A stretch of 64,000 nt of DNA from an uncultured archaeon. Lineage in GTDB: Archaea > Asgardarchaeota > Thorarchaeia > Thorarchaeales > Thorarchaeaceae. The notes below the pieces were generated by a model. It was not told the DNA's origin. It saw only the letters and a list, made by a program, of their open reading frames with translations, and made no database searches. Made by a program: the position numbers and the translations under genes. Where the stretch lies: assembly GCA_964558645.1 (NCBI GenBank), contig CAZLEV010000002.1, positions 288,001-352,000 of the forward strand. The letters run 5' to 3'. Positions 6,042 through 25,517 of the stretch are shown here, in pieces (position 1 is the stretch's first letter; each line of letters starts with the position of its first letter).

Positions 6042-6590
6042 ATGCCTCTATTTGGACGTCGAAAGAGCGAATATGACCAAGCTGCAGAACTTATCACAAA
6101 GGGCGAGATAGACAAGGCCATACCGATTCTTGAGAGGGTGATCGCCAAGGGACCTACTCACACTAATGCACGGGTCGCCCTAGCGGTGGCACTGCTTGAG
6201 AAACAGGATAAGGCAACACGAGAAACAGAGGATACCCAGAAGGCCTTCAGACTGCTCGACGAGGCCGCTGAATTGGCACCGGATGACCCCGTGCCCCTCT
6301 TCAACAGAGGCGTATGCCTGCGAAAGCTGGACGAGCCAGAGGCGGCGCTTGAAAGCTTTTCCGCAGCACTAGATGTACATGAGCAACTTCCTCTCGCTCT
6401 TCTCCATATGGCCGAGATCAACTACGAACTGGAACGGTGGGACCAAGCCATCGACCTAGCAAGGAAAGCTCTGGTCATGGACCCCGGGTTTGAGGCCTCC
6501 ATGGACTGGGTGCGAGATGCCCTGCGCAAGGCTGGCAAACTGGATGAAGGCAAGAACATCATCGAGAAAGATGCCTCACCAGATGAATAG
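6042..6590 (+). CDS. TPR repeat protein
   Basis: Several TPR-like helical pairs; ATG at 6042 preferred over the TTG at 5943. Confidence 0.85.
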   Translation: MPLFGRRKSEYDQAAELITKGEIDKAIPILERVIAKGPTHTNARVALAVALLEKQDKATRETEDTQKAFRLLDEAAELAPDDPVPLFNRGVCLRKLDEPEAALESFSAALDVHEQLPLALLHMAEINYELERWDQAIDLARKALVMDPGFEASMDWVRDALRKAGKLDEGKNIIEKDASPDE

Positions 6591-6669
6591 ACTTAAATTG
6601 GCTCCTCCATCGCTTCTGCCCTGTCTGGAGTCCTCATAAGCGACTCCGTCTACCATTTAGGTGAATACC

Positions 6670-7080
6670 ATGTCCACTCGAGGAGAACCGATGTATCGCG
6701 GGCATAAACTAGAGGACCTAGCCAAGATGAGTATGGACGAACTCATCGAACTGCTCCCCGCGCGCAGGCGCCGCACCCTCAAGCGCGGCCTGCCCCCACG
6801 ACAGAAGAAACTCCTCAGAAAACTCCGCGATGCGCGCAAGGCCACTCGTAAGGGCAAAGACGTGGTTGTTCGGACGCACTGCCGTGATATGGTCATCCTG
6901 CCTGAGATGGTGGATCTGACCATCGCCATTCACGACGGGCACGAGTTCAAACGCGTCAAGATAATTCCTCAAATGATTGGACATGTATTGGGAGAGTTCT
7001 CCCCAACTGGCAGAGAAGTAAGGCATGGTAGCCCTGGAATCGGCGCTACAAAGAGTTCTGCGTACGTGCCGCTGAAATAA
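6670..7080 (+). CDS. rps19p: 30S ribosomal protein uS19, archaeal type
   Basis: YRG..L..M..ARRRR.L.RG, VRTHCRDMVILPEMV, IGHVLGEFSPT and HGSPGIGATKSS.YVPLK; SD-like AGGTGA at 6659-6664 precedes ATG 6670. Confidence 0.97.
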   Translation: MSTRGEPMYRGHKLEDLAKMSMDELIELLPARRRRTLKRGLPPRQKKLLRKLRDARKATRKGKDVVVRTHCRDMVILPEMVDLTIAIHDGHEFKRVKIIPQMIGHVLGEFSPTGREVRHGSPGIGATKSSAYVPLK

Positions 7081-7114
7081 AGCGGAAAGACGAACTTTTA
7101 GTAACTTCAAGGGG

Positions 7115-7162
7115 TTATGAGTACTTCTTTCTCTTGCCTTGTTCTCAGTATGGACCTTGTCC
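7115..7162 (-). pseudogene. Decayed 3' tip of a homologue of the 10408-11061 gene
   Basis: gtacttctttctcttgccttgttctcagtatggaccttgtcc aligns with gtccttctttctcttcttcttccgctcagtgcgtgccttatcc at about 20792-20834. Confidence 0.6.
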
Positions 7163-7419
7163 AGTTGATAGGTTCCGATTTCCGCAGACCACTTCTCCGA
7201 TTCCCTCGGTTTCCTCCTAGGTGTCTACAACCACGAGACAGTCTGGATTGTGTGAAGGATGATGCCTTTGCCGTTCACTTCTTGACGAAACGGAATATCA
7301 GTGAGTGTCCGGTTACGCTTATAACCAATTGACCCTAACTTCTCCTGTTGGTGGGATGTTTCTATGGTAAAGGAACTATCCAAGGCCGCGAGGTCAGGAA
7401 TTGAGGAGGTAACAAGAAC

Positions 7420-7698
7420 TTGCCATTTCCAGCTTTAGAAGACCTACTTGACGAACCGCCGGAGAGCTTCCCCAGTAGATCCAGTGTCAAGATTCTTCGT
7501 GGAAAGACCTTGACTAGAATCGGCAAGTGGCACAAAGCAGCTGTTCTCGTCGATTCGGGTGGGAAGAAACAGCTTAGACTATATGGTTGGCGGAAAAGCA
7601 AGGAAGGTATATGGAAGGTCATTCAGAAATTCAATGTGTCCAGAGGTTATGCAGCAAGAGTTGGGGCCATACTGGATGCATTTGCCATAGGTGAGTGA
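7420..7698 (+). CDS. Small basic protein, possibly PC4-like nucleic-acid binding
   Basis: LRLYGWRK..G.WKV..KFNV pattern; SD-like GGAGGT upstream; overlaps the next ORF (GTGA). Confidence 0.55.
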   Translation: MPFPALEDLLDEPPESFPSRSSVKILRGKTLTRIGKWHKAAVLVDSGGKKQLRLYGWRKSKEGIWKVIQKFNVSRGYAARVGAILDAFAIGE

Positions 7699-8885
7699 CA
7701 AGGATGACTTCGGATTCCGAACAGGAATCTTATCGTATTCTTCCAGACTGCGAATACTGGCTCGAGATGCAGATAAACCCCGAAACAGTCTTGAAGAAGC
7801 TCAATTCCGAAAGGGAATTCAAAACAATCGGCAAATTCAAAGCATCAGACTTGTCCGAGTTCTTTGAAGCTAACATTGACGGATCCACGTCCCATATTTC
7901 CAAGAATGATCTAGTTGCTCTGATTATAAGAAGACATTCTGATCTTAAGAACACCCTTCTCGTCCTAGCCCAGTACTCGCGTCATGTGAGCAAGAAGGCC
8001 TTACAAGAATACTGTATGAAGAAGGACTTGAACGGGGGAAGTAGAACTACAGTCCAGTTGGCACTGCTTCTTTTCAACAATGCACCGGAAGTTCTTCGAG
8101 AAGCACGCGTTGCCAGTATGGGCTATAGAATTCGAACCTGTTACAATTTCATAATCCCTAACAACCTGGTGATTAGGAGAATCAATGAAGAGAGCGCAAC
8201 TGATGAGCTATCGGAGCTAATAGAGAACGAGCTGTCAACCGCTGAGAAGAGAGTCAAGTTGGTAGAACACCATATTGATGACACACGAGAAACTTATCGG
8301 CTCTTCGTGAAATACGAAAATCATGAGGAAAAGGTTGTTGAATGGGATAGCGCGTTTTGGGTGAAGCCCATAGATTGGATTGTTATTGACTATGATACAG
8401 ATTCCGGATTTCTCGACATTCGTTGTAGAAACGGGGCAAGAGCTAGGAACATGGTTTTGCTTTTGTCGCGAATCACAACAGGGCACGACGATGCATTTGA
8501 AACACAAGCAGTTTATGACTGGAGCGATTCTTTAGAGATACATGAAGTGGAATTAGAGTCAGACAAGTTTGAAGTCTTGGATCACGATATCAGAAGAATC
8601 AGTGTAGAAAACGCGCCTCTATCGAATCGTCCTAGTTTCGTTATCCGGGGAACCAAACTCAAGAGGGCGCTAGATGAGCTAGCGGAGAATCATGACTTTA
8701 ACCTCCTATCGGGAGCAGATATCAGATCATTGGATATTAAAATCAAGTTCGAATATGATGGCGTGACTGACGAAACGACTATCCGTTTGAACAGAGATAC
8801 TGAGAAGCTTGTAATGACAAAAGAAACAAATGAACAAGCGAAAAGGCATCTGATCGCTTACATTGGGAAACTCCTTACAGGTTGA
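7695..8885 (+). CDS. Hypothetical protein, putative defence operon gene 2
   Basis: 396-aa ORF with lower GC; translationally coupled on both sides. Confidence 0.7.
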   Translation: MTRMTSDSEQESYRILPDCEYWLEMQINPETVLKKLNSEREFKTIGKFKASDLSEFFEANIDGSTSHISKNDLVALIIRRHSDLKNTLLVLAQYSRHVSKKALQEYCMKKDLNGGSRTTVQLALLLFNNAPEVLREARVASMGYRIRTCYNFIIPNNLVIRRINEESATDELSELIENELSTAEKRVKLVEHHIDDTRETYRLFVKYENHEEKVVEWDSAFWVKPIDWIVIDYDTDSGFLDIRCRNGARARNMVLLLSRITTGHDDAFETQAVYDWSDSLEIHEVELESDKFEVLDHDIRRISVENAPLSNRPSFVIRGTKLKRALDELAENHDFNLLSGADIRSLDIKIKFEYDGVTDETTIRLNRDTEKLVMTKETNEQAKRHLIAYIGKLLTG

Positions 8886-10268
8886 ATGACTTTGCAACTC
8901 AGTCTGCCACAAATGAGTCTGGTTTCAGATGTGTTCTCGGCGCATAATGCAATTGGATACTCCGAGATTGTTTCTAAAGGACATGAAATCACCGTAATCA
9001 GAGAACTCGTAGAAGCCGGCATACTTGAAAAGCGTCTGAAACCAGAGATTCCTTGTCCTGCTTGCAATCGTACGATGGGGATTAGACTTGATATCGGATA
9101 TACATGCACAAGCTGTGGTCGAGTAATCCTACTCGAAGATGACCATCTTCTTGAGCACTCCACCTATCGAGCATCTGTACAACATCTTGTCAAAACCATG
9201 AGGAATCACCTAGTCAACGAAGGATTCAATCTCATCTCAACCGAAGAGAGCAGAATTGCAGGTGTGTATGCAATCGGTCGAATTCAGAGCGGTTCCGAGG
9301 GTGAACTTGATTTGGTGCTGCTTGCAAAACCTCTGAGTACAACGACCTTGTCCGCACTGCTAGGTGATGCAATTGCACATAGTACGAATACAGCGGTGTT
9401 TATCCCATCCAGTGAATCAGGTTTCGAACGCTCTCAAAGCGAGCTCATAGCCTTTCCCAAATTGCTCACAATGGATTTGCCCCTATTTGGTCAAGAGCCC
9501 ACAATGAGAAATCTGGAACGCTTCCTAAGCCACTCGGCCTTTCTCTCATCAATTATTGCATCCATTCGGGAGGTCACTGGGAGTGATCAGAGCCTGTTTA
9601 TGACACGGGATGAGGTTCAGTTCCTTGAAAATGCAAGAAGACTCTCCCAGACTGGGAGAAAGAGATTCGAACCGATAGCATTGCGACTGCTTCAACCTCT
9701 TGGGATAACCTCCCGGTTTAAGGCGGGAGGTTATGGCCCGGATGGTATGCTGTACCTCCCTGATGAGTTCTACATTGTTGATGCAAAATCAACCGAGTCC
9801 CAGTTTGAATTTAGAGTTGAGGAACGTGACAAAATTCATCGTTACATCCGTGCAATCGAAGACAATTGCGATTTCCTAGGAGAATATGGCTTCTCAGGAG
9901 AAATCATTGTCACCCCTTCCTTGAAGGAGCCGCACTCTGATACGTTGGATAAGGTAGAGGAGTACTTCTCAAAGAATCCGATTAATGGTCGCTTGGTCAT
10001 CATCTCCTCCGACGCGTTAATAGATTTGCATCGTAGCATTTTCGCTGACTTGGAGTATTTTCATCGGCTCCAACCAAAGCATCATGTCAAAGACCTTCTA
10101 AGTGGCCGACTGTCAGTTGATCCAACGGGTGATTCCCCCCAATTCCTGCATGTTGTCTACGTTGGCGAGGAAACAATGCAGAGATTCTATAGTTTGGTAT
10201 TAGATTCGCCGGCACTGAGCATGCGTAGCGTTTCATATCTCGACAGTTGGATTGAGAGTGTCTACTGA
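8886..10268 (+). CDS. Zn-ribbon plus PD-(D/E)XK restriction-endonuclease-fold protein
   Basis: CPAC...CTSC near the N-terminus; FE...GPDG..(x)..IVDAKS catalytic motif. Confidence 0.75.
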   Translation: MTLQLSLPQMSLVSDVFSAHNAIGYSEIVSKGHEITVIRELVEAGILEKRLKPEIPCPACNRTMGIRLDIGYTCTSCGRVILLEDDHLLEHSTYRASVQHLVKTMRNHLVNEGFNLISTEESRIAGVYAIGRIQSGSEGELDLVLLAKPLSTTTLSALLGDAIAHSTNTAVFIPSSESGFERSQSELIAFPKLLTMDLPLFGQEPTMRNLERFLSHSAFLSSIIASIREVTGSDQSLFMTRDEVQFLENARRLSQTGRKRFEPIALRLLQPLGITSRFKAGGYGPDGMLYLPDEFYIVDAKSTESQFEFRVEERDKIHRYIRAIEDNCDFLGEYGFSGEIIVTPSLKEPHSDTLDKVEEYFSKNPINGRLVIISSDALIDLHRSIFADLEYFHRLQPKHHVKDLLSGRLSVDPTGDSPQFLHVVYVGEETMQRFYSLVLDSPALSMRSVSYLDSWIESVY

Positions 10269-10349
10269 CGGGTACTTCGATTTCAGCGTCCTCTTCCACA
10301 CGAGTTCCCAATGCCATAACAGTGGGCTCGCTTCGACAGCAAGAAGGGG

Positions 10350-10380
10350 GTTAGATGGCCCGGAATCGTCACGCCTAAGG
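10350..10380 (+). repeat. Strongly decayed rps19 3'-end remnant
   Basis: gttaga-tgg-cccggaatcg (V R..P G I) shares gcccggaatcg with the 23358 copy and sits just past the stop of the convergent gene, as in the other scars. Confidence 0.5.
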
Positions 10381-10407
10381 AGGACCATCTCTCAACGAGA
10401 CCATCTG

Positions 10408-11061
10408 TCAATTGCCCTTCTTCCTTCTCTTCTCACTGCGAGCTCGGTCAGCCGCCTCAATCTCCTCCCACTCCTTCATCTTCTCACGAACGCGTTGGGA
10501 TTGTCGTTCCATTGCGGCCTTGAACTCGGGTGTCTTTGATGCCTCATCCACGATTTCGTAGTACGCGATAGTTTCACCATCAGTGAATTCGTAGGAAGTC
10601 GTGACTACATCATATATATGGATGTGCTCTGTGCCCTCCGTGAAACCCTTCTCTTCTAACAGCTCCACTGCTTTATCCACTCTCATCCTCCCGAGATCTT
10701 CGGGGCCCGTGTTGCTGCGCAGGATTCTTATCAATGCCTTCTCCCGCTCCTTGAGGTTCTGGTAGTGTTCTGATCCCTCATCAGAGAGAATCTTAAGATG
10801 CCACACCGGCCTTCCGGGGTCAATATCAAACTTCGTCGCGTCTTCCGGAGAAACATGGTCCAGGGTCTTGTCAATGATCCAATCGTCCAGCAGTTTGATG
10901 ATCACTCTGCGAATGTCATCCTCTGTACAGTCCATGCCCTCATCCTCCGAGGACCCGAGTAGCAGGGCCACAGCCTTGTCCAAGGGAATTCCGTATTCCT
11001 CAGGATGAGATTCAATGAGGGCCATGAGGTTTTCCTTCACAATTAGAATATCACAGTTCAT
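10408..11061 (-). CDS. Probable tandem winged-helix protein with a charged C-terminal helix (element gene 3)
   Basis: Internal repeat (IPLDKAVALL / MRVDKAVELL); its C-terminus KTPEFKAAMERQSQRVREKMKEWEEIEAADRARSEKRRKK recurs as remnants; ATGA overlap with the upstream gene. Confidence 0.7.
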   Translation of the reverse strand: MNCDILIVKENLMALIESHPEEYGIPLDKAVALLLGSSEDEGMDCTEDDIRRVIIKLLDDWIIDKTLDHVSPEDATKFDIDPGRPVWHLKILSDEGSEHYQNLKEREKALIRILRSNTGPEDLGRMRVDKAVELLEEKGFTEGTEHIHIYDVVTTSYEFTDGETIAYYEIVDEASKTPEFKAAMERQSQRVREKMKEWEEIEAADRARSEKRRKKGN

Positions 11062-14000
11062 GATTCCTCACCCACAAGTTCGTCATAATAGCATGGGTAC
11101 CCTGTGCTTTTTAGCTCCTCTGCTATAGGTTTGCCTAGATCTGGTCTGCTTCTAACCCACTTCTTCACCTTCTCCAACTTCGTCACATCATTAGGGGGAC
11201 ACATGAGTACAAATCGCATAAGTTCCGTGATTCGAGAGGTACTGTACATCCATTCACTTGACACTCGGCCAGAGCCCTCATAGAATGTGATTTTTACCAG
11301 ATAGGGCTTCACTGCAACACCTATTGAGGCAAGTGCATCTATCTCATCCTGAAACAACTGCGGCTTATTCGTTTCAACTATCTCACGGAACTCGTTGCAT
11401 GTTGCAGACGTTTCAGCAACTTCCTTTAACTTTCCGCCCGTCATTTCCCACCTAGGCCCAAACCGCTCATCATCTTCTCGCGTGCCATTTTCTTTGATTA
11501 CTCCAATATGCTCGTCTTTGATACAGGATTCAAAATCGTACTCCTGTTTTGAGGGATCTGCAAGGGTAGTGGCACGAGTAACAGAAAACTTGGGTCTCTT
11601 TCCCAATTCATCTAGAGAAAATGAGCCATCTTCACAGAAGGTTTCCCTGAAGTAGCATGATTTGATCTTAACAGATCCATATCGGATGAACCTCGGAAGA
11701 CGAGTCGCCTGCATTCCCTTGTCACCAGGCGGAAATCCTCGTGAAACCAACAACCGCCCCAGCACACTGGTGAATCGTACCTGTCGCACGCCATTCTCCC
11801 TGATCGCGACATGGTAGTAGACATCGCCCAAGGGGCGGACACTCGCGATAACGATGTCCACGCGGTCAGGGTCGCACTCGGTATAGACGAAACCATTCTG
11901 TTTGAGTTCAACATGTCCATCCGACAGTCCAGTCCCGAACAACTTCGCGAAAAGAAGGTCCACAGCATATGGGTCCTTTGGGAACCGCGGATTCTCGATA
12001 CCACCGTGCTTGTGCCGACCGATCCGCCTGAGGCGCGACTCGACGGTGTCAGGACCAACGCCCAGCGTATCGAGGATGAGGGCAAGGGTGGCCCCCTTGA
12101 GATACGGGGCACGGGAATTGAGGTCAGCGTTCTGTGAAGACTTGAACACTGTTCGATTATAGTCAGTGATTTGCCCAATGAGCTTGCTGAAGTACCTGTC
12201 ACCTACCAGTCCAAGACGGTCGCGGGCAAGAGTAATGAGCGTCCGCTTATCCGAGCGCCTTCGGAACCTGAATATCTCCTCACGATACAGATGCATCCAG
12301 TTCTGCTCACGGGTGTCGTGCATGCGAAAATACAGGCGGTCGTTCACCACACCCAGCCTGAGCTGGCGCTCCGGGTCATCAGCAAGCCTAAGGCGAACAT
12401 TGAGCTCCTGCTCGATGGCCTCCCGCTCCCGCAGGGTGGCCTTGGCGATGCGCCGCAGCCAATTTGGCCCACCATAGCTGATATTCCGCATGTCAGCCCA
12501 CAACACTCGCCGTGGATGCTCCGCTGAGAGATAGACCTCCGCGATTGCCCGTGAGAGTTCATCCACCGTGGGTTTCTTGACTTCCCTGAGATGGCGTAGA
12601 TGCGCATAGACCACCTCAGGCGGTATGCGATGCTCGAAGGCCTCGGGGCTCAGGTTGCCCTCGTATTCGGCCCGTGAACTCTCCGCAGACCCGAGCATCT
12701 TGAAGATCCTTGGGGTCTTCTTCTCTGGAACCCAATACCGTACTCTTGCCGCCGTGGTTTTGAGGATCTTGGCGATCTCAACATAGGTCAGTTTCTCAAT
12801 GTCGCGACGGCTCTCCATCTCCTTGAGCCCGATGTATGCAAGGGCCGACCTGTTCAGGGTCTTGAAGTTGCGCTGGTCGCGGTAGAAGTTGTGGCGTCCC
12901 AGCATGACCTCGTACTCCAGACGGCAGGACGGAATCCATGATGAGTCCTCCCTCCGCTCGATGTCCGAAAAGCCATCCTGCTTAATGCCCACCCCGATGA
13001 GGGACGGTGGTGCACCCCTGAGCCAGTCGATAACCCGCTCCGAGGAAACGCCGAGGCGGTCAGCGAGCCTTTCCACCGACACTCTACGATAACGCTCCTC
13101 CCCGTCCACCATGACAAAGGGGATCTCGTGGTTGTGGGCGGCACGCATGACCTCGCCCCAGGCCTGAAACTCCGCGCACCAGAAGTCCACCGTGAAGCTC
13201 TGGGATATCTCCTGGTCGTCCTTTACCATGGTGATGATTCGCTCCATGCTACCCTCGTCCTCATGGAGAGTGCCGTATCGAAGCATCCGTGACCAGCGTC
13301 GCTCAATCTCTAGACTCCAGAGATTCCGGATGAGCTCGGGGGCGTTGTCATCATCAGCCAGTTCCTCGATGCGCTTGCGGTCGATACCCAGCTGTCGGGC
13401 CAGTTCGTCAAGATCGGGCTCGTTATCCGCCTCCTCGAGGGCCTTCTTGACACGGACATAGTCCTCCGCGTCCTTGAGTCGCTCCTCCAGCTCCTCCTCG
13501 TCCAGTGACTCCCTGTAAGCTGTGACATACCTTTTCAGGCTCTGGTTGCTCTTCAGGGACTCCTTGGCCTCCTCCCTGAGGCGCTCCTTCTCCTCCTCGG
13601 GGAGCTTCTCGAACTCCTCTTTCAGCAGGCGCCTCAGGCGTTCCTCGCGGGTCTCAGGGAACATTGAAGGGCGCAGAGGGCCACCATCAGGAAAGATACT
13701 GGAAAGCGTCGTATGAAGTCTCCCCCGTTCATCGGGAGTCTCTTCCTCTTGCACTGACTCCTCTCTCTCCCGGACATCCTCAGTGGGGGATCCGGTGTTC
13801 TCTTCCGAGATATCTTCAGAGGCGTTTGTGTCAGGCTCAACGTCAGATTCCTCTGACTGCTCAACATCCACCCTCGAGGGGCTCTCGGACTCGACCTCCT
13901 CAGAGAGCTCCACGTCCTCCGTGGTGTCTGATTCTTCCGTTTCAGACTCATCTTCTCCCTCCTCGTCGGTGGTCTCAACATCGGGCGGCTCTATCTCTTC

Positions 14001-14786
14001 GTCAGTCTCCTCCTTGACCCTCACATCCTCAGAGACATCGGGTTCACCGCTGTCCCCCATGGCCTCATGCCCGTGTTCGTCAAGAACCTCCTGGCTCGTG
14101 TCCGCAGCTGCGGTCTTGTCAACCTCTGACTCCTCAGCCGCCACCTCAGCGTCAGCGTTCTCCTCTGGTTCCTCCTCAGTCTCGATCTCTACGGTGACCG
14201 TGACCTGTTGATCCCCCGCGTTCTCCTCCACGCGGACCTCCCCTGATTCTGAGGAGGACATATCCGAAGAAGCAGACTCCTCCTCGGGTTCTTCCTCGAC
14301 CTGTTCTTTGTCTTCTTCTAACTCAAATTTTTCCCTCAGCTCAGACTGGTACTCCTCAGAGAGCCTCTCCGAAGCCTGTCGTATCTCGGCAGAGGTCTCC
14401 TCACTGGAGAGTCCGTCGCCAGTCCCGGGATTGTCCTTCTCTGGATTCCGCCTCTCCTCATGCTCCGCCTCGTTCTGGCGCCTGACCTCGTCCACCATCT
14501 CCCTGATACTCTGGTCAAACTCAGCACGCTCGCGCCGAGTCCGCTCTCTCGCCTCCTCCACTGTCTCGCGTATCTTGCGGTCGAACTCGGACTCCTCACT
14601 CGCCTTGGGAGGTTCATCTCCCTCAGTCCTCGCCTCTGTCCCCCCATCTGCATTTCGTTCGGCTGCCGTTCTTCTCCGGGCCTCGTCTACCAGCTCACGC
14701 ACACGACGCTCGAACTCCTCATCGTTCTCTATACCCTCTCTACTCTTTCGTGACCTCTTCTCCTCCCCGCCCTCACCGGCCATCAC
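11058..14786 (-). CDS. Large protein: acidic low-complexity N-terminus, three HTH motifs, double LAGLIDADG-type endonuclease (element gene 2)
   Basis: HTH-like LDELARQLGIDRKRI, VERLADRLGVSSERVIDW and YVEIAKILKTTAARVRYW; LAGLIDADG-like FAKLFGTGLSDGHV and YFRETFCEDGSF about 100 aa apart, separated by a GFPPGDK...LP.FI linker. Confidence 0.75.
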   Translation of the reverse strand: MMAGEGGEEKRSRKSREGIENDEEFERRVRELVDEARRRTAAERNADGGTEARTEGDEPPKASEESEFDRKIRETVEEARERTRRERAEFDQSIREMVDEVRRQNEAEHEERRNPEKDNPGTGDGLSSEETSAEIRQASERLSEEYQSELREKFELEEDKEQVEEEPEEESASSDMSSSESGEVRVEENAGDQQVTVTVEIETEEEPEENADAEVAAEESEVDKTAAADTSQEVLDEHGHEAMGDSGEPDVSEDVRVKEETDEEIEPPDVETTDEEGEDESETEESDTTEDVELSEEVESESPSRVDVEQSEESDVEPDTNASEDISEENTGSPTEDVREREESVQEEETPDERGRLHTTLSSIFPDGGPLRPSMFPETREERLRRLLKEEFEKLPEEEKERLREEAKESLKSNQSLKRYVTAYRESLDEEELEERLKDAEDYVRVKKALEEADNEPDLDELARQLGIDRKRIEELADDDNAPELIRNLWSLEIERRWSRMLRYGTLHEDEGSMERIITMVKDDQEISQSFTVDFWCAEFQAWGEVMRAAHNHEIPFVMVDGEERYRRVSVERLADRLGVSSERVIDWLRGAPPSLIGVGIKQDGFSDIERREDSSWIPSCRLEYEVMLGRHNFYRDQRNFKTLNRSALAYIGLKEMESRRDIEKLTYVEIAKILKTTAARVRYWVPEKKTPRIFKMLGSAESSRAEYEGNLSPEAFEHRIPPEVVYAHLRHLREVKKPTVDELSRAIAEVYLSAEHPRRVLWADMRNISYGGPNWLRRIAKATLREREAIEQELNVRLRLADDPERQLRLGVVNDRLYFRMHDTREQNWMHLYREEIFRFRRRSDKRTLITLARDRLGLVGDRYFSKLIGQITDYNRTVFKSSQNADLNSRAPYLKGATLALILDTLGVGPDTVESRLRRIGRHKHGGIENPRFPKDPYAVDLLFAKLFGTGLSDGHVELKQNGFVYTECDPDRVDIVIASVRPLGDVYYHVAIRENGVRQVRFTSVLGRLLVSRGFPPGDKGMQATRLPRFIRYGSVKIKSCYFRETFCEDGSFSLDELGKRPKFSVTRATTLADPSKQEYDFESCIKDEHIGVIKENGTREDDERFGPRWEMTGGKLKEVAETSATCNEFREIVETNKPQLFQDEIDALASIGVAVKPYLVKITFYEGSGRVSSEWMYSTSRITELMRFVLMCPPNDVTKLEKVKKWVRSRPDLGKPIAEELKSTGYPCYYDELVGEES

Positions 14787-17845: not shown

Positions 17846-18091
17846 GGGGCAGTACTTCCTCCTTTCAGTGGTGAGATGTTGCGCCGGACCGCAACCTACC
17901 GAGTACAGTGATTGTCACCAAGTATCATAGGTGTTGTGTGATTGCTGTCTACAGCCTCATAGCCAAGATAGGGAGGCATCGGAAGTTATGAGAGTCTAGT
18001 GGTAACTAATACGTTGATACAGGCTTTTATGAAGCATATGAGTCATGGATAGCGGTCACTGATGTGGTCCATTGGACATTTGTATACAATG

Positions 18092-18133
18092 CCAGGGACG
18101 ACTAAGAGCCCTGACGCCGTTCCACTCAAGTAG
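18092..18133 (+). repeat. rps19 3'-end remnant
   Basis: Translates PGTTKSPDAVPLK*, compared with native PGIGATKSSAYVPLK*. Confidence 0.75.
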
Positions 18134-18141
18134 GAGGAATT

Positions 18142-18305
18142 CTATGCGAAATGGGTCATTATGCGCCATTTTTTTTTCTTCTTCGTGCTTACAAGACGAG
18201 CCCTATCTTCCGCCTCGAGCTCGGCATCCCGCGTCATTTTCTCCATCAATCGTTGGGACTGTCGCTCCATCTCAGCCTTCCACTCAGGGGTCTTTGAGAA
18301 CTCGT
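18142..18305 (-). pseudogene. 3' fragment of a homologue of the 10408-11061 gene
   Basis: EFSKTPEWKAEMERQSQRLMEKM...EAEDRARL..KKKKK aligns with the C-terminus of the intact gene. Confidence 0.85.
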
Positions 18306-18466
18306 TCACAATTCCACAACAGGGTAACATCTCATCATTGACAGTATTAGACGAGTTTCAATAACACCCTCGATATGGATGTGTTTCCGTTATATAGGAC
18401 GTGACTTTCCCATCGCTCAGAAAGAATAAATCGTAGTCTGTACATTGACTACACGGTGGTATTGGA

Positions 18467-19429
18467 ATGAAGAAGGGCTTCATTGTATTATATGCAATTC
18501 TCATTTTAGTAGTTTTCATGCAAGCGCAGGTAGATGCAACAGCCCAAGGGGACAGTGAGTTTGAAACGAAAGACTTCCTGCTTGATGATGGCACACTGAC
18601 TTATCGAGGCTGGATGCAGACCGAACAACCTAGCAGCTCCAATCCGTACGGAGTAGAAGGGTTGTTGAATGTGAGTATAACCGCGTACGCCAGTGTGAGA
18701 TCGCTCTCGGATGAAATTGTGAGGTTTGAGGTTTCGATGTACTTCAATGCACAAGAGTGCTATCAGAAGCGTCAGGGCACGGAGTACACGCCAGACAGCG
18801 ACGGAATACGATACTATGATAGTGAACTGGACTTCATTGGCACAGACGATATGCAGTATGAGTATGAGGGGAACGTGAACAAGAAGGACGGCAGGTACTC
18901 TCTCTTCCACGCGCCGCAGGGAGCATCATACTACTCGGTTGCTGCCTACTTCGACAGTGTCTTCGTCTATGAATGGATTGCAACGCTACCAGTGCCATTC
19001 CCGGAAGCAGGAGAACAGAACGGGTTCTTCGTCCATAATATCTCAGAATGGTCCATTGGAACAGATTACCATAAGGACTACACCGTATCCGGGGAGTCGA
19101 CCTATGGTTCCTATGAAACATGGGTCTTGGAGCCGAAGAGTAACCTAGCAGGCATGGATGTTTTTGAGGACAGGATAGAGTGGGAGAAAACCAGCGGCCT
19201 GTTTCTCCAACAAGACTCAAGATTCGTGGAAACCAATGAGTTCGATTTTGAGTACCATCTCAGAGCCACTGAGTATGAAGATATGATTCTGATACCAGCT
19301 CCAGCCGTTGTTGACCCCTTGATGACAGGTATTGGAGGATTTGCGGTGGTGGGAATCATTGCCATAGTTATTCTCTACAAAAGGCAGAAGGACAGCCATA
19401 GCCAAGTCGTGCTACCTCCCGGATTCTGA
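18467..19429 (+). CDS. Secreted protein with a C-terminal membrane anchor
   Basis: Signal peptide, acidic/aromatic ectodomain, TM helix followed by KRQK. Confidence 0.8.
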   Translation: MKKGFIVLYAILILVVFMQAQVDATAQGDSEFETKDFLLDDGTLTYRGWMQTEQPSSSNPYGVEGLLNVSITAYASVRSLSDEIVRFEVSMYFNAQECYQKRQGTEYTPDSDGIRYYDSELDFIGTDDMQYEYEGNVNKKDGRYSLFHAPQGASYYSVAAYFDSVFVYEWIATLPVPFPEAGEQNGFFVHNISEWSIGTDYHKDYTVSGESTYGSYETWVLEPKSNLAGMDVFEDRIEWEKTSGLFLQQDSRFVETNEFDFEYHLRATEYEDMILIPAPAVVDPLMTGIGGFAVVGIIAIVILYKRQKDSHSQVVLPPGF

Positions 19430-19545
19430 CCGCCTTATTCTGTATCGCGATGAAAACGAGGCGAATTCCTATATCAGAGAATTAGTTATATGCTAGTAGA
19501 AGGAAGGCAGGTTTGCTTGCGTCGCCATAGGATAGGGAGTTTCGT

Positions 19546-20541
19546 ATGAGAAAGCTAGCTGTAATCATATTTCTAGTCACTGTAATGCTACCTACTTCCT
19601 GTTATGCCGCAGGATCCTTTCATGTGGCAGACACGAGATTCGACTTTGACGAGAGCATATCTCCTGGAAGCTGGTATTGGATTCGCTCATCTAGTGTAGA
19701 ACCCGGAATGGGATTCTACGGAAGCGTGAAGGTCGACTCTGGCCAGGACCTAGACTTCTTCGTCTGTGATGTTGATGGCTATAACGATGTTCAGAACGGA
19801 AAGAGTACAACCCCTCTCCATCACTGGGGGGAAGATATCACGGGCACCACCGATTTCGAGTTCATTGCTCCTGATAATGGTGATCTGTATTGGTGCTTCA
19901 GTAATCACGACAGCGTCTTCACAACTATTCATATTCAGGGATACCTGAGTCGCGACCTGACAGCACCCGAACTTGACATAATAAGCCCCAATCAAGGTCA
20001 GACTGTGGATGGAACGGTGGTACTTGAAGCGACTGCCGAGGACAATCAGTTTGAAGTGGAACTGATGCGCGTCTATGTTGATGACAGCCTGAAGAAGACT
20101 GTCAGTTCTGACTCAATCACATACTACTGGGACTCGAAAGAGGTTGACGACGGCGCCCATACCGTCAAGTTCTACGTCAGTGACAACGTGAACAATGAGC
20201 GTGAGATCATCCGAACGGTATACGTGGACAATATTATCGAAGTAACTTCTACGACGGGGACGAGTTCAACGACCTCCACGACAGATTCAGGTTCAACACC
20301 AACTCAAGATCCAGGTGGCCAAGATCCAGCGAATACCTCCCCGATGCTTCTCTCCATGCCTCTCATCACTGGGGCATTCATCGTGTTAGGGATTGCTGGC
20401 GTTGGTTATGCGGTAAGTAGGAAGGAGAGCGCAACGTCGGCTCCGGTCTCTGAAGCCAAGGTTTTCGTCATCTGTCCGTACTGTGGTGCAAAAGTGGAAC
20501 AGGGAATCACGAAGTGCCATAAGTGCGGTGCAGAAATCTAG
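19546..20541 (+). CDS. Type I membrane protein: GOLD-like domain, Ig-like domain, S/T linker, TM helix, cytoplasmic Zn ribbon
   Basis: Signal peptide; V.SGQDLDFFV...FEFIAP..G..YWCFSN; ISP..GQTV.G...WDS..V.DG.HT; CPYC...CHKC. Confidence 0.75.
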   Translation: MRKLAVIIFLVTVMLPTSCYAAGSFHVADTRFDFDESISPGSWYWIRSSSVEPGMGFYGSVKVDSGQDLDFFVCDVDGYNDVQNGKSTTPLHHWGEDITGTTDFEFIAPDNGDLYWCFSNHDSVFTTIHIQGYLSRDLTAPELDIISPNQGQTVDGTVVLEATAEDNQFEVELMRVYVDDSLKKTVSSDSITYYWDSKEVDDGAHTVKFYVSDNVNNEREIIRTVYVDNIIEVTSTTGTSSTTSTTDSGSTPTQDPGGQDPANTSPMLLSMPLITGAFIVLGIAGVGYAVSRKESATSAPVSEAKVFVICPYCGAKVEQGITKCHKCGAEI

Positions 20542-20789
20542 ACCTCAAGAGTGTGTAGGGTGGGCGGCCGCCCAGAATCTGTCGCTCACTTACCCCCTCC
20601 CCCTTGATACTTTGCGACCTTCTCGGACCGGCTGCTAATTGAGTACAATATGCTAGGTTTTCTGAATGCCAAGATGAAAACTTACAGACTACCGGTGGGA
20701 ACGTAGTGATTCAAGAGGGCCAGAAGGGCAGCGACTTAGGTTTCCATTTCGCCTGAAAGACTGGTCTTCTGCCATGGACTTCCCTTCGT

Positions 20790-20923
20790 ATGTCCTTCTT
20801 TCTCTTCTTCTTCCGCTCAGTGCGTGCCTTATCCGCTGCATCGATCTCCTCCCACTCCTTCATCTTCTCAAGTACACGTTCAGACTGGCGTTCGGCTTCT
20901 CGCTTGTACTCCTCGGTCTTCAT
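20790..20923 (-). pseudogene. 3' fragment of a homologue of the 10408-11061 gene
   Basis: KTEEYKREAERQSERVLEKMKEWEEIDAADKARTERKKKRKK. Confidence 0.88.
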
Positions 20924-20926
20924 GCA

Positions 20927-21433
20927 CTATGGCTCTTCCGAACCGGATGAAGACCGATAATCGCTTCTGGCGTGCCACCTATGGGCAACGAAGTAGGTCA
21001 GTATCTGAAGAACAGGAAGCGGGAATGCATCCATACCAGCCCAACCATCCAGGCGGTATGAAAAGGCTACAAGATAGAACAACGGAATGATAAGAGTTCC
21101 AAGCAGTACGCCACGGATGGTCTTGCCCTTGCCCCAGGCACGACAAGACACCATCCATAGCAGGAAGACGCCCAGGGTCATTGCCATTGCGCTCCAAATG
21201 GTGTGCACGATTGTTGGCATCAGCAAAGAAAGACTTGAGAATGGGCCAGATAGGTAGCTTCCATAGGAGTAGCTGATTGTCCAGACTGTTGCTACTAATA
21301 TGATACTGGTCTGATGGTTGTCCACCAAAGATCTGAATTCAATACTCAATGTATGGGGAGCTAGAAGAAATATCAGCACCAAGATGAGGATCTGACGAGT
21401 TGAAATGCTGGAGCTTGATTCCATTTTTCCCAT
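20927..21433 (-). CDS. Multi-pass membrane protein
   Basis: Hydrophobic helices from MGKMESS (ATG 21433); the longer ORF call overlaps the neighbouring gene. Confidence 0.65.
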   Translation of the reverse strand: MGKMESSSSISTRQILILVLIFLLAPHTLSIEFRSLVDNHQTSIILVATVWTISYSYGSYLSGPFSSLSLLMPTIVHTIWSAMAMTLGVFLLWMVSCRAWGKGKTIRGVLLGTLIIPLFYLVAFSYRLDGWAGMDAFPLPVLQILTYFVAHRWHARSDYRSSSGSEEP

Positions 21434-21641
21434 CTCAATTGACCACCCTGCAATATCGTTGGAACAGAGAACTAGGAATGATCTCTCCCGAAGAACAATT
21501 GCTTTGTTTCTTCTTAAACTATCCTGCAAGTTTCTTATTGCGGGAGGGCAGGAGGCGATGGCCGAAATCTTCGACAAATCGAAGATGAGGATGTAAAGGG
21601 GTGCATTTCTAATAGCCTGACATGTTTGACCCAATCGCCCA

Positions 21642-22094
21642 CTACGAATCACGGGTTCTCCGGACAAGAAGTATGTATATCTCGATGCAGGAGGTGACAA
21701 CCCCGAACAACCCCAGCACAACCACCACAGCTGCGAGATCCATCGGGACATAGGGCATCATGACCAACACAAAGAGCAAGAGAAAGGTGGCGTAGAAGGA
21801 GAGGTATAGAACGAAACGCGGCACGAGTCTGTTGCCCAGGAGAAGGTAGAACCTGAGTTCGCCCAGAGGAACAAGTCGTACAACCGTGTATCGGCCCATG
21901 TCATCCCCAGCCACAAGGCCAAGGGACTCCAGCTTCTTCAGATGATACGATGCGAGGCTGACGCTGGACAGCTTCGTCCCGTCCTTCACCTCGCGACGAG
22001 TCCTGCCCTCGTTCTGTATGATTAGCCAGCGATAGACTTGGAGGGTCGTCCTATGGAGGTCAGGTTCTTTGTCGTCCGCCGTCATCCATGGCAT
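21642..22094 (-). CDS. Membrane-anchored winged-helix (ArsR-like) regulator
   Basis: REV.....LSSVSLASYHLKKLESLGLV followed by two TM helices. Confidence 0.8.
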   Translation of the reverse strand: MPWMTADDKEPDLHRTTLQVYRWLIIQNEGRTRREVKDGTKLSSVSLASYHLKKLESLGLVAGDDMGRYTVVRLVPLGELRFYLLLGNRLVPRFVLYLSFYATFLLLFVLVMMPYVPMDLAAVVVVLGLFGVVTSCIEIYILLVRRTRDS

Positions 22095-22111
22095 CCCCAG
22101 ATTCCTGTGAG

Positions 22112-23239
22112 CTACTCCACTTCCATTTTCCTAACGGATCTCCTTAAAGCGTATTCTGTGGAGAGAGCCGCTACAACGGCAACTGTCATACTTGTCACCG
22201 TAAAGAGAATCCAGAGCGTTTCGCATGGACGCTCTAAGACTGCCAGGTCTAGGCTCTCACGGTACGGCACAGTCTGCACGACCTCGCCCGTGCGCGCATC
22301 GATGAGCACATCACATCGTGATACATCATCAGAAGTCACCACATACCAGACAAGGCGCATATGGTGTGGTGTGGTCTCTGCCTCAATCGTGTCGCTTACA
22401 GTGAGATTGTACATGACAACCCGTTTCCCAGTGACCTGCTTCGCTATGTCATACGCACTGAACTCATTTATCGTTGGACCCAGTGTGAAAACGCCCAAAT
22501 CGCGCCAGAGGTAATGGAATCCTGAGACCCGCCCGGTCAGGATATCCACTTCGATAAGGATGCCATCCCCACTGTACCCCAATGAGAAAGAAGGAGGGGA
22601 TTTGATGGAGATGCCATTAGAAACGTGTTCGAAAGCGAGGTGGTAGTTGCCGGATGTATGATGCTGAATCACTCCACAATAGCGTGCGTCCTTCGGCAAC
22701 GTGATATTGTTCAGATTCAAGAATGCCATTGCAGAGGCCTCTGCAGCAGCTGGTGCGATTGGCTGGGTCTGATTCTCTGAATCGCCTCTGAGAGCACCAC
22801 TTGTACACTCGAATCTGATCACCTCCCCCGAGACCGCGCTCACCTGAACCCATGTGCTCTTTTCATTGACGAAGAAGCGCCACGCCGGGATACGGGAGAC
22901 CTTACTGGCATATATGAGATGAAATGAGGACCAGTCCCATTCCGGGTAGTTCAACTGGAAGAACGATATTGCGTTCTTGCGGGCCTGGCTCTCGTTGACT
23001 AAGTAATACTCAGAACCGGGATCAACAACGATGAATGAACCGTTTTCGATGACCAGGTCCTGAAATCGGAACACACGTTCGGATTCATCGACATAACTCC
23101 AAAAGGCTGTTTCATCTATCGGTAGAGAGCCGATCTTTGTTTCTATTGGGAGGCTATTCGCTCCAACAAAGGCAATTGAACCCACAAGTATACCGAATAC
23201 GATGCAAGCCAGCCATGTCCCTCTCTGTATCATGAGCAA
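22112..23239 (-). CDS. Secreted or membrane-anchored PepSY-like repeat protein
   Basis: Signal peptide; repeated VSAVSGEV, VDILTGRV and IDARTGEV motifs; C-terminal TM helix. Confidence 0.7.
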   Translation of the reverse strand: MLMIQRGTWLACIVFGILVGSIAFVGANSLPIETKIGSLPIDETAFWSYVDESERVFRFQDLVIENGSFIVVDPGSEYYLVNESQARKNAISFFQLNYPEWDWSSFHLIYASKVSRIPAWRFFVNEKSTWVQVSAVSGEVIRFECTSGALRGDSENQTQPIAPAAAEASAMAFLNLNNITLPKDARYCGVIQHHTSGNYHLAFEHVSNGISIKSPPSFSLGYSGDGILIEVDILTGRVSGFHYLWRDLGVFTLGPTINEFSAYDIAKQVTGKRVVMYNLTVSDTIEAETTPHHMRLVWYVVTSDDVSRCDVLIDARTGEVVQTVPYRESLDLAVLERPCETLWILFTVTSMTVAVVAALSTEYALRRSVRKMEVE

Positions 23240-23331
23240 ACCCCTGTCAGACCAGTGGATGAGCTATACTTATTCAGGACTAGATGATAAGACTACTTTT
23301 TTTCCTCTGATTCAGAAGAGAAATGGCTATG

Positions 23332-23406
23332 ACCAATCGTGAAGTTCGACATGGATCGCCCGGAATCGGTGCCACGAAGAGCTCCGCGTACGTCCCGCTC
23401 AAGTAG
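23332..23406 (+). repeat. Intact-coding, synonymously recoded copy of the last 24 codons of rps19
   Basis: Translates TNREVRHGSPGIGATKSSAYVPLK*, compared with native TGREVRHGSPGIGATKSSAYVPLK*, with many synonymous changes. Confidence 0.95.
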
Positions 23407-23432
23407 AATCATCTTCGAGACGAGGGGCACCA

Positions 23433-23520
23433 TCAACCCTTTCTTCCTTTCTTTTTCTTCTGCTCAGCGCGAGCCCTGTCCTCTGCATCGATCTCCTACC
23501 ACTCCCTCATCTTCCCCTCT
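23433..23520 (-). pseudogene. 3' fragment of a homologue of the 10408-11061 gene
   Basis: GKMREW*EIDAEDRARAEQKKKKGRKG*, with one internal stop. Confidence 0.85.
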
Positions 23521-23694
23521 CACTCCCTATTCCAGTGTTGTATCAGAATCTACTGGCGCCCGAAATCGGCGTTATTCTGACACAACGATTTCCATGCCAG
23601 TTTTTGTTGGAGAAGAGTATAGAATACATATCACAAGCCTCTTATATTATTCCGAATTAACTATTGTTCACTACATACACTAATAGGTGATTTA

Positions 23695-24099
23695 TTGATG
23701 AACCGAACAAAATCCCTTCTGGCTATGGCTATGATCATGGTTTTCCTCAGCATAAGTTCTGTTGGAGCCGTGACCATCGAAGATACAGCAACTCTAACTG
23801 TAAAGCATCGAATTCCCGGTACTGCAGCAGGTCAAATCCTGCTTGGTGACCCATTCGCTCTGCCTTTTGAGCTACCAGTGGACGTCTACGTTAATGGTGA
23901 ACTTGCCTTTACTTTCTCTTTCAGAGACACGGTAGGTCCCATCGAATTGCCGGCAGGTACATACACCGTAGAGGTAAAACTCGCGGGTACTGACATCACA
24001 GTCATCGGTCCCCTTGACCTAACTCTTGAAGCTGGTGATGATGTCACCGCAGTAGCTGTCCTGCAAGGACGACGAGGTCCAACATTACTCCTTGAGTAG
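23695..24099 (+). CDS. Secreted DUF4397-like beta-sandwich protein
   Basis: Signal peptide; V.H.IPG...PVDVYVNG...LPAGTYTVEV..AG...L.AG...TAVA pattern. Confidence 0.7.
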   Translation: MMNRTKSLLAMAMIMVFLSISSVGAVTIEDTATLTVKHRIPGTAAGQILLGDPFALPFELPVDVYVNGELAFTFSFRDTVGPIELPAGTYTVEVKLAGTDITVIGPLDLTLEAGDDVTAVAVLQGRRGPTLLLE

Positions 24100-24141
24100 A
24101 TTTTTGTTTCCGATGTCAGAGAGGCTAATATTTTAGCCTCA

Positions 24142-24205
24142 TCCTTCTTTTCCTTTTTCTCTTCCAAGGAATTTCTCGAGTGTGCTTCTCGCCTGTACCC
24201 TCCCA
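24142..24205 (-). pseudogene. Internally deleted 3' fragment of a homologue of the 10408-11061 gene
   Basis: GYRREA...KKEKKD compared with EYKREA...KKKRKKD; gcttctcgcctgtac compared with gcttctcgcttgtac at about 20895. Confidence 0.55.
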
Positions 24206-24235
24206 ATAGTGACGACTTAGGCTCTATTGTCGGCT

Positions 24236-24400
24236 CAGGAGAGCGATGAAGAGAACATCTGATTGGACTCCGAGTCGGCCAAAGAGGAGCTGTTGACTCT
24301 GCTGGATTCCTTTCCGGATGAACGGCTGGAGGGCATCGAGGTTTCGCGAGAAGTCAATGATCCAGAGAACGAGGGGCCGAAACTCATCCTTCCGGTTTAG
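24236..24400 (+). pseudogene. C-terminal remnant of an SRAP (YedK/HMCES) family protein
   Basis: ESDEENI*LDSESAKEELLTLLDSFPDERLEGIEVSREVNDPENEGPKLILPV* matches the SRAP tail (WLD..LL.P.P...VS..VN.P.N.GP.LI.P); the Trp codon is TGA. Confidence 0.7.
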
Positions 24401-24496
24401 GATAGGCCTCATCATAGACAGTCTACCACTGAGCCAGACATCCGGAGCAGATGCATTCAAATCCACGAAAACCAGTGCATTCAGAGGTGTGAGGTA

Positions 24497-25081
24497 GTGA
24501 ATGCCGAGAGAGTATCATCCCAGAGTCGGCGATTTGTCCCTCCCGTAACAGGCCTATGGCCCGGCGAGAGGATAGTCTGGATCCGAAGACCAGGAACCGG
24601 GTTCTGGATAACGTGTTTTGGGATTTTGTTGGTATTAAGCATTATTTCGCTCCCCTTCACGATTGCGTCCGATCTTGGTCTCTCAGGAGCAGCTCCCCCG
24701 CTCTTTGCGGCAGTGGGTGGTATTGTCATCTTCATGTACTTCTATATCGTGAGAAGACGTACAAGATACTACCTGACAGATGAGCGGATAATCGAGGTCC
24801 GTGGCGACCGTATCGTCAAGGAGATGTCATTGGAGCGTTTCGCTGGAAGACCCATGGGCCAGTTTTTGGAGTCACGTGTCACACATACTGTCAACAACAT
24901 GCCGATGTATGACATTCGGATATATGACCCTCTCTCAGATGAGACCATGGTGCTCAAGAGCCTGGATGGCTTCTCTGCATCGTGGCTAGAGGAGATTGGG
25001 AAGATACGGGAGTGCCGTTATTGTGGTCTTGAAAATGTGGCCATAGCGGGCAAGTGTAAGAACTGTGGAGCGGTGCTGTAA
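24497..25081 (+). CDS. Membrane protein with a bacterial PH-like domain and C-terminal Zn ribbon
   Basis: GERIVW..RP, two TM helices, TRYYLTDERII, CRYC..CKNC. Confidence 0.7.
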   Translation: MNAERVSSQSRRFVPPVTGLWPGERIVWIRRPGTGFWITCFGILLVLSIISLPFTIASDLGLSGAAPPLFAAVGGIVIFMYFYIVRRRTRYYLTDERIIEVRGDRIVKEMSLERFAGRPMGQFLESRVTHTVNNMPMYDIRIYDPLSDETMVLKSLDGFSASWLEEIGKIRECRYCGLENVAIAGKCKNCGAVL

Positions 25082-25167
25082 CCTATACAGTACAAGGGGA
25101 GTATTTTCTCTAGGTCAACTGACGTGCTAGAAGGAGAATAGAGAAGAACGGGATAAAAGAGGCCTCC

Positions 25168-25245
25168 ACCAAAGCTACGTACGCGCCACTCAAGTAAGTC
25201 TGTATCCTGAGAAATAGTAGGATAGCACGCCTCTTTCTTACCTTG
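25168..25245 (+). repeat. rps19 3'-end remnant with a faint convergent-gene tip
   Basis: 25168-25197 translates TKATYAPLK*; followed by a pyrimidine tract (cctctttcttacctt) at about the same spacing as in the other scars. Confidence 0.65.
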
Positions 25246-25517
25246 TCATACGCCGTAGCTTCAATCAGTACCGAAACAGCAGACTGAATGCAAACCCTTT
25301 TGGTTTCTCATTGAACCTAAGATTGCAGGCACCAAGCAGATTGGCCCATCAGACCCAGTCGCCATTGCACAAGAGGACTAATGCCGACTCTTTTTCCAGC
25401 AGTTCGTTTGTTATCTTTGGTTACTCTAGGTATCATTCGGCTGTTCACAGCAAGATCTAGGTGTGGCTCTTCGATTCTTTCGCCTTTCGTCAGAAGAGGA
25501 AGCGAAGCATGTGTGCG

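Follow-up and report, generated by a model that had tools for sequence, protein, structure and literature searches.

How can DNA be inserted again and again at the end of an essential ribosomal protein gene and leave that gene intact? We addressed this question in a 64,000-nt stretch (hereafter the window; contig C2:288001-352000) of an uncultured Asgard archaeon of the Thorarchaeaceae, known from a metagenome-derived assembly of 3.63 Mb in 37 contigs (92.8% complete, 6.3% contamination). In this window rps19, encoding ribosomal protein uS19 (6661-7080, + strand; Pfam Ribosomal_S19, E = 3.2e-29, 101 bits against a cut-off of 27), is followed by displaced copies of its own 3' end and by a 7.7-kb candidate mobile element. 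Very little is known of Asgard mobile elements, and the routes by which DNA enters Asgard chromosomes matter for gene flow at the base of the eukaryotes. Taken as a whole, our results make it fairly probable that the rps19 end is a hotspot for elements that replace the gene end and are integrated through the action of a nuclease, with the parts of this statement differing in strength: we hold with high confidence that DNA was inserted repeatedly at the last 79-90 nt of rps19, supplying a recoded end and displacing the old one, and that strains with an empty site exist; the nuclease-driven step, our preferred candidate mechanism, we put slightly below an even chance when taken alone.

Full-length rps19 occurs once in the whole assembly, outside the usual ribosomal operon and preceded by a phosphoglucosamine-mutase-like gene (PGM) and a TPR gene, an upstream order (PGM-TPR-rps19) kept in every family member examined. 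The tail of its product, HG(S/N)PGIGATKSS.YVPLK, is conserved and aligns with that of 30 relatives. An initial annotation, made from the sequence alone, had proposed that this gene end recurs at five places downstream (10350, 18092, 23332, 25168 and 51885). We scanned the window with an nhmmer profile of the last 84 nt of rps19, trained on relatives' sequences only, which matched the resident end (6998-7080, E = 5.8e-20) and a second copy at 23324-23406 (E = 4.5e-19) that is beyond doubt: an intact displaced 'type 2' end comprising the last 79 nt of the gene (23328-23406, + strand) and reading TNREVRHGSPGIGATKSSAYVPLK followed by a stop. Over the last 20 codons, resident end and copy differ at 16 of 60 bases and at no amino acid, and the type 2 end is the native rps19 end in related strains. 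Native and displaced ends within one genome show the same relationship in four other genomes, with proportions of synonymous differences (pS) of 0.51-0.86 and of nonsynonymous differences (pN) of 0-0.09, the exception being a decayed copy in G001 (pS 0.35, pN 0.20). Because synonymous divergence is high and the protein unchanged, the copies are foreign alleles rather than local duplicates, and the divergence accumulated while each version encoded a working uS19 tail. Incoming DNA brings its own synonymously recoded rps19 3' end, together with a stem-loop, and leaves the old end downstream as a direct repeat; the supply of a gene end and the displacement of the old one had been foreseen in the initial annotation. 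The gene stays intact because the inserted DNA carries its own end.

Evidence for such replacement also came from other strains. Logan contigs (contigs, not reads) of four sequencing runs were mapped to positions 6001-26000. Two of the runs, X2 and X4, which come from two additional studies, contain contigs in which 6992 is connected directly to 23328 and 6996 to 23350; translated in frame, these joint contigs give an intact uS19 whose tail is that of the 23328 copy. They represent the empty site whose existence the initial annotation had suggested looking for, that is, strains or close species without the intervening 16.3 kb, and in X2 the empty form was found at higher contig depth than the filled form. 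These joints fix the left boundary of the duplicated segment, which reaches back 79 nt from the end of the stop, and the divergence of the X2 and X4 contigs at 6992 and 6996 marks the functional end now in place ('type 1', the last ~88 nt of the gene, 6993-7080, + strand) as element-derived. The filled form was likewise reproduced: contigs of run X3 (from a different study, at least 99% identical) cross the junctions at 10350, 18095 and 23332, and one X2 contig spans 6991-11737. Contigs end or diverge at 18092, 18155, 18330, 20928 and 23406, the predicted unit borders (for example, an X2 contig ends at 18092, with a loose end at 18155; an X4 contig continues differently past 18330; and both X2 and X4 contigs do so past 20928). 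Farther downstream, an X2 contig leaves the gene for a 194-aa protein at 25149 and continues in sequence matching 51873-51896, so that the 26.7 kb separating two copies of a direct repeat (described below) is probably absent there.

The type 1 end and the stretch 3' of it are common to G001 and G002. Between G000 and G002 the end is identical at 63 of 66 positions, compared with only 283 of 330 in the gene body; the differences are too few to support a claim of recent horizontal spread of this end (third-position differences between the same genomes, 3 of 22 in the end versus 36 of 110 in the body). Directly 3' of the resident rps19 lie a stem-loop (-12.6 kcal/mol, z = -2.3) and a ~50-nt remnant of the 3' tip of g3, a gene carried whole by the intact element described below (7081-7165 in all, remnant at 7117-7165, - strand). 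The remnant was recognized because it aligns with the G002 junction, which continues into a whole g3, and it bears out the earlier claim that the native gene, too, is followed by such a tip. Most rps19-end copies have their own, differing stem-loop after the stop.

Among the other proposed copies, a partly decayed end at 18095-18133 (+ strand; GTTKSPDAVPLK and a stop) is marginal by score (E = 0.014) but is in register and stop-terminated, with a g3 tip 9 nt farther on. At the left end of the intact element is a heavily decayed match (10353-10377, + strand, E = 16) that lies ~30 nt before the stop of a complete g3, a position that is its sole recommendation and has an estimated chance of ~1%. 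Degenerate ends at 25175-25196 (TKATYAPLK and a stop, E = 1) and 51892-51914 (TKPAYVPQK and a stop, E = 0.16) both lie inside a single 265-nt direct repeat (77% identity) and are therefore counted as one observation; repeat copy A (24932-25197, + strand) comprises the 3' end of the 194-aa gene plus the degenerate rps19 end, and in copy B (51649-51914, + strand) the degenerate end is followed by a g3-tip-like stretch. The matches at 10353, 25175 and 51892 are weak, none being significant alone, and of the earlier list they retain mainly positional support. All weak matches are on the + strand, those at 18095, 25175 and 51892 cover the 3' part of the profile, and those at 10353 and 18095 stand directly before g3 sequences.

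This pairing of a gene end with g3 was examined through a genome-wide six-frame search for the family of g3 (10408-11061). The initial annotation had put the g3 3' end within about 10-35 bp of each rps19-end copy, and stop-to-stop spacings of 9-36 nt agree with this. The search found a tip of ~61 codons of a G002-like subtype (18142-18330, - strand; match 18175-18345, E = 2.8e-10) and one of ~28 codons with an internal stop, after a stem-loop (23436-23531, - strand; match 23445-23531, E = 8.5e-4), whose junction is near-identical to the G001 scar junction. Of two additional tips that had been proposed, the one at 20790 was recovered (20711-20923, - strand; match 20801-20926, E = 5.5e-9) without a detectable rps19 copy, as a subtype sharing its C-terminal motif with the g3 of JGI contig L098; the other, at 24142, was rejected as a low-complexity K/E-coding run beside a hairpin. 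Together, these features record several insertions at a reused site; a single element of 7.7 kb is still intact, and later erosion has reduced no fewer than four others to left-end remnants. Direct repeats overlapping the rps19 3' end thus stand at 6993-7080 and 23328-23406, and further ones (10353 and 18095) flank the intact element.

That element (10353-18094, ~7.7 kb), the only intact unit, consists of three genes, for g3, a helix-turn-helix (HTH)-LAGLIDADG protein and a HerA-like ATPase. The 217-aa g3 product (10408-11061, - strand) is predicted to be a tandem winged-helix protein with a long C-terminal helix (AlphaFold2 (AF2) pLDDT 89.6); its top Foldseek matches were the tandem winged HTH (wHTH) TFIIIC tauB, RTP, ScpB and PadR (best E = 1.5e-3), with no recombinase fold found in the Foldseek search of the AF2 model and no match in PADLOC, PHROG or NCBIfam. 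The second gene (11058-14786, - strand) encodes a 1,242-aa protein with an acidic N-terminus, a middle rich in HTH matches and a C-terminal two-motif LAGLIDADG domain (~residues 930-1230; AF2 pLDDT 90.5). Only the fold search revealed this domain, which Pfam HMMs missed even at E = 10 on the isolated C-terminus: the modelled domain has the two-lobed alpha-beta-beta-alpha-beta-beta-alpha fold with two LAGLIDADG helices, and Foldseek matched it to I-Tsp061I (E = 1.7e-6), PI-SceI and I-DmoI (TM up to 0.67), each with a probability of 1.00, and to WhiA. Acidic metal-binding residues are retained in the aligned family members (D956 in 23 of 23 and D/E1053 in 23 of 23). The third gene (14783-17845, - strand) encodes a 1,020-aa membrane-anchored ATPase of the HerA/FtsK superfamily, with a hydrophobic N-terminus, a Walker A motif (GATRSGKT), weak Pfam matches to DUF87/HerA_C, matches to PADLOC HerA models (E = 1e-5 to 1e-7) and a match below the cut-off to NCBIfam CedD (E = 2e-7). 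No integrase, serine recombinase or casposase was found in the intact element. The assembly contains one tyrosine recombinase (Phage_integrase, contig C1), with none among the array proteins scanned, no serine recombinase above the cut-off, and a single Cas1 on contig C4, none being in the element. Measured against integrative conjugative or mobilisable elements and proviruses, the element has direct repeats overlapping the 3' end of a conserved gene and no integrase of its own.

The ATPase and the N-terminal half of the 1,242-aa protein seem to be common to other strains, which appear to carry a different LAGLIDADG half and g3: in run X2, contig depth rises from 13.5 to 59-77 near 12.5 kb, with a joint from 7079 to 12496. 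GC content falls from ~0.58 to ~0.48 inside the nuclease gene (11000-12600, with the break between 11 and 12 kb). L098 (12 kb) carries a related module of g3, a LAGLIDADG gene (61% identity) and a HerA-like gene (28% identity), followed by other cargo, including genes for a NosD-like beta-helix protein and an acetyltransferase; because the ATPase is far more diverged than the nuclease, the modules have been shuffled. Scans of metagenome contigs for relatives of the nuclease domain, and of viral contigs for relatives of the ATPase, found none.

Is this site a hotspot beyond a single genome? A downstream series of genes (59840-60382, 60485-61411, 61736-62122, 62139-62594 and 62906-63949) has homologues that follow rps19 in 14 relatives. 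The first of these (59840-60382, - strand) is the ancestral convergent neighbour, found ~100 bp after rps19 in G021, 265 bp in G017, 1.8-11.7 kb in eleven others and ~13.6 kb in G096, as against 52.7 kb here. Because relatives identify the gene at 59840 as the conserved neighbour, the variable region runs from 7081 to 59840 (~52.7 kb); the right limit of 25250 (a region of 18 kb) in the initial annotation was too short, and its suggestion that gene content downstream of rps19 would vary among relatives (gaps of 0.1-11.7 kb versus 52.7 kb here) held. At least five further genomes of the family have additional rps19 ends, lying 3' of rps19 in G001, G007, G016 and G022, with two more on other contigs (G009:C96 and G016:C6). 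Whole g3 genes stand directly after rps19 in G001, G002 and G003, with a LAGLIDADG gene or remnant behind g3 where the contig reaches, and similar arrangements occur in G069, G057, G078, G062 and G096, so that g3 and/or the HTH-LAGLIDADG gene directly follows rps19 in about nine genomes of several genera. Several relatives' assemblies break at rps19, which the pile-up of insertions there would explain. In G003 (contig C33, L048, 3248-4384), the peptide FNPHNMRLASAS recurs at even intervals in the open reading frames (ORFs) that come after rps19 and g3, most likely because a CRISPR array has been translated as if it were coding.

The LAGLIDADG proteins form a larger family (~320 representatives at 50% clustering) found in 50 of the 87 genomes of the order, often in several copies. 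Clades of the family track the adjoining gene, namely rps19, rplB, LSm, rubredoxin, 2-oxoacid oxidoreductase (OFOR) or ahcY. As with homing endonucleases, the gene sits beside a candidate target in a conserved gene, and its distribution is patchy. One such locus, at rubredoxin in G046 (C163, L094, 1048-5840), has the same architecture as the rps19 locus with a different target: the rubredoxin gene is followed by a convergent LAGLIDADG gene and two more genes and then, 4.5 kb on, by a copy of the rubredoxin 3' end (24/26 nt) that includes a stop. This was the only positive case, with no displaced gene end found for the ahcY and LSm elements or in the 9.7-kb contig carrying the rubredoxin element of G050.

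Other members of the family were seen in a variety of settings. On contig C10 of the same genome, outside the window (20614-24434), the ribosomal genes L3-L4-L23 are followed by a 234-aa LAGLIDADG fragment, L2 and then FtsZ instead of S19-L22-S3; a full-length relative of the fragment sits before rplB in G054 (L095), and nucleases of this family may have contributed to the break-up of the operon. In G004 (C4, L091, 7169-8466), a LAGLIDADG gene adjoins an S-adenosylhomocysteine hydrolase gene whose reading frame is split by a frameshift ~68 codons from the end. This break may mark the junction of a gene-end replacement that went wrong; no displaced copy was found. A second array, also outside the window (C2:91776-120190), holds three g3 homologues (91776, 98482 and 112640), the last accompanied by a decayed LAGLIDADG gene and a gene for a 1,180-aa HerA-like protein.

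How might these genes accomplish insertion? We propose that the LAGLIDADG protein is a site-specific enzyme that would cut an unoccupied rps19 end, and that the break would be repaired by crossing-over with an incoming circular element carrying a cut-resistant recoded copy, resulting in integration and in duplication of the shared rps19 segment. The HerA-like ATPase would move the DNA between cells, and g3 would bind the element end. Later deletions, swaps of g3 and the LAGLIDADG half, and chromosomal rearrangement between repeats could then turn successive insertions into a mosaic instead of an ordered record. The initial annotation had envisaged a chronological array, and a strict order of this kind was not supported: the most decayed copy is the second (10353) and an intact one comes fifth (23328), the differences between strains involve several units together, g3 and the LAGLIDADG half have been exchanged between variants, and the 25.5-51 kb block shows that rearrangement contributes.

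Several observations weigh against our proposal. Classical homing leaves no flanking direct repeats, and the repeats of 28-79 nt look more like the att sites of a site-specific recombinase; the LAGLIDADG fold can also belong to a non-cutting DNA binder, as in WhiA. In G096 the LAGLIDADG gene begins 49 nt after rps19 with no detectable displaced end, the arrays of G007, G016 and G022 carry scars with no LAGLIDADG gene nearby, and the association of clades with neighbours could have arisen by vertical inheritance at fixed loci. The far right edge of the variable region (~59.8 kb) shows no scar, the 25.5-51 kb part looks like relocated chromosome, and no back-joining (circular) joint was seen among the contigs, which cannot speak on rare circles.

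Some of these points would be expected if the rps19 end and stem-loop were an att site used by a recombinase that is unrecognizable in the element, either supplied in trans (for example, a host Xer-like tyrosine recombinase) or hidden in the 1,242-aa or HerA-like proteins, the LAGLIDADG protein then being a DNA-binding, replication or regulatory factor or a selfish passenger. Direct repeats of 79 nt at rps19 and ~26 nt at rubredoxin resemble attL and attR, tyrosine-recombinase elements typically form arrays by reusing one site (PMC6563490), some arrays bear scars with no LAGLIDADG gene close by, and the assembly does encode one tyrosine recombinase. However, no integrase lies in or near any array examined, the intact element has three genes only, with g3 adopting a wHTH fold, and the repeat copies are ~79% identical with exact runs of at most 8 nt, short for a shared core; we therefore regard this explanation as unlikely, yet as the most serious of the alternatives. 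Insertion could instead have needed no dedicated enzyme, had circular DNA with an rps19 3' segment arisen by recombination between repeats in a donor array, entered by any uptake route and been integrated by host homologous recombination of the Campbell type. Just such a duplication results when one crossover occurs within a short shared segment, the en bloc strain difference of 16.3 kb is as expected from recombination between distant repeats, and an indel seems to be bounded by the two 265-nt repeats at 25.1 and 51.8 kb. Against this, a shared segment of 79-90 nt with copies ~79% identical is a poor substrate, the one scar comparable with an empty allele is host-type over all 79 nt with no hybrid, pointing to exchange at the segment edge, and the recurrence of a clade-specific nuclease gene beside the site is left unexplained, which makes the enzyme-free route improbable.

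A third explanation would dispense with mobile DNA altogether, by a strain-chimera assembly or by tandem duplication of the rps19 end in situ followed by decay. The assembly is indeed metagenomic, with 6.3% contamination, and Logan contigs break at 6991, 18092 and 23343-23372. Yet every internal junction is reproduced by independent runs (X3 and X2), so that the array is not the assembly chimera that the initial annotation had named as fatal to its proposal; moreover, synonymous divergence is near saturation with the protein unchanged, and five other genomes show the same pattern. We consider such an artefact or local event very improbable. Nuclease-driven integration remains our preferred candidate reading.

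Known systems resemble the locus in part. In fungal mitochondria, duplicates of the C-terminal part follow atp6 and cob, with ORFs of the LAGLIDADG or GIY-YIG type next to or between them (PMC6279837); as at rps19, a LAGLIDADG-type gene lies between the conserved gene and its displaced 3' end, and the replacement end keeps the gene intact (PMC6279837). The locus here differs from the fungal case in lying on an archaeal chromosome and in having a ribosomal protein gene as its target. Its nuclease domain forms part of a large HTH protein and is accompanied by a wHTH protein, by a HerA-like ATPase and by cargo measured in kilobases, and there were several tandem rounds. Streptococcal integrative conjugative and mobilisable elements insert in the 3' ends of rpsI, rplL and rpmG (PMC4701971), sharing with this locus site-specific insertion in the conserved 3' end of an essential, last-in-operon gene with its product unchanged, as well as transfer ATPases and cargo (PMC4701971); they use tyrosine or serine integrases or DDE transposases, whereas none was found at rps19, where the replaced segment is heavily recoded and, at 79-90 nt, long. 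In archaea, integrated elements and casposons occupy the 3'-distal parts of protein genes, also in tandem arrays (for example, at ef-2 in Thaumarchaeota; PMC6563490), and these elements share with this locus an archaeal host, the 3' end of a translation gene, tandem reuse of the site and a frame reconstituted by element sequence (PMC6563490). Casposons carry Cas1, PolB and terminal inverted repeats and make short target duplications, and other archaeal elements carry tyrosine recombinases, none of which applies here.

The initial annotation had likened the array to an integron. A fixed anchor and successive units each bearing a copy of the recombination site are common to both, as is the expectation that the newest unit lies beside the anchor. 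The likeness fails in that the window has no integrase (no IntI) and no attC-type sites, the repeated site being the end of a coding gene plus a stem-loop, and in that genes lie in both orientations with no common promoter logic, several of the units being remnants of one type of autonomous element, not promoterless cassettes. Four features are new: an integrase-free set of genes that unites a wHTH protein, a HerA-like ATPase and a LAGLIDADG-HTH protein; the long recoded replacement end; the Asgard host; and the family-wide hotspot. No description of such an element was found in a full-text search of the literature on LAGLIDADG proteins, Asgard archaea and mobile elements, and an Asgard mobile-element paper that was consulted makes no mention of one. 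We tentatively suggest an undescribed class of Asgard integrative elements in which an HTH-LAGLIDADG nuclease replaces the integrase, entry is by break-induced crossing-over and transfer is HerA-like, with sister lineages targeting rubredoxin, ahcY, rplB, LSm and OFOR. The locus offers a defined hotspot readable in every Thorarchaeota-like genome of the family, a small three-gene candidate mobile element without a known integrase, and a directly testable idea, according to which a nuclease of the homing type now serves to integrate large cargo and the element safeguards its essential target by means of a recoded gene end. If true, the nuclease family would comprise natural, programmable-looking enzymes aimed at different conserved genes.

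The rest of the variable region consists of cargo and rearranged sequence. Unit 1 carries three coupled genes (7420-10268, + strand; 92, 396 and 460 aa) with no PADLOC, PHROG or NCBIfam match, the 460-aa product matching Pfam FokI_cleav_dom below the cut-off (E = 0.0016); an unnamed nuclease-based defence system is possible. Further along lie genes for two predicted secreted or membrane proteins of 320 and 331 aa with Big_7 and zinc-ribbon matches (18467-20541, + strand), for a membrane protein, a wHTH protein and a PepSY-domain protein (20927-23239, - strand), and for a DUF4397 protein and the 194-aa membrane/zinc-ribbon protein (23695-25081, + strand). Between repeat copies A and B is a ~26-kb block of metabolic genes (25518-50989) whose orthologues lie elsewhere in the chromosome in other genera and were not found in the two congeners. 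Beyond copy B, the gene for a 1,108-aa secreted protein (55633-58959) contains three 405-nt tandem repeats that are 67-80% identical.

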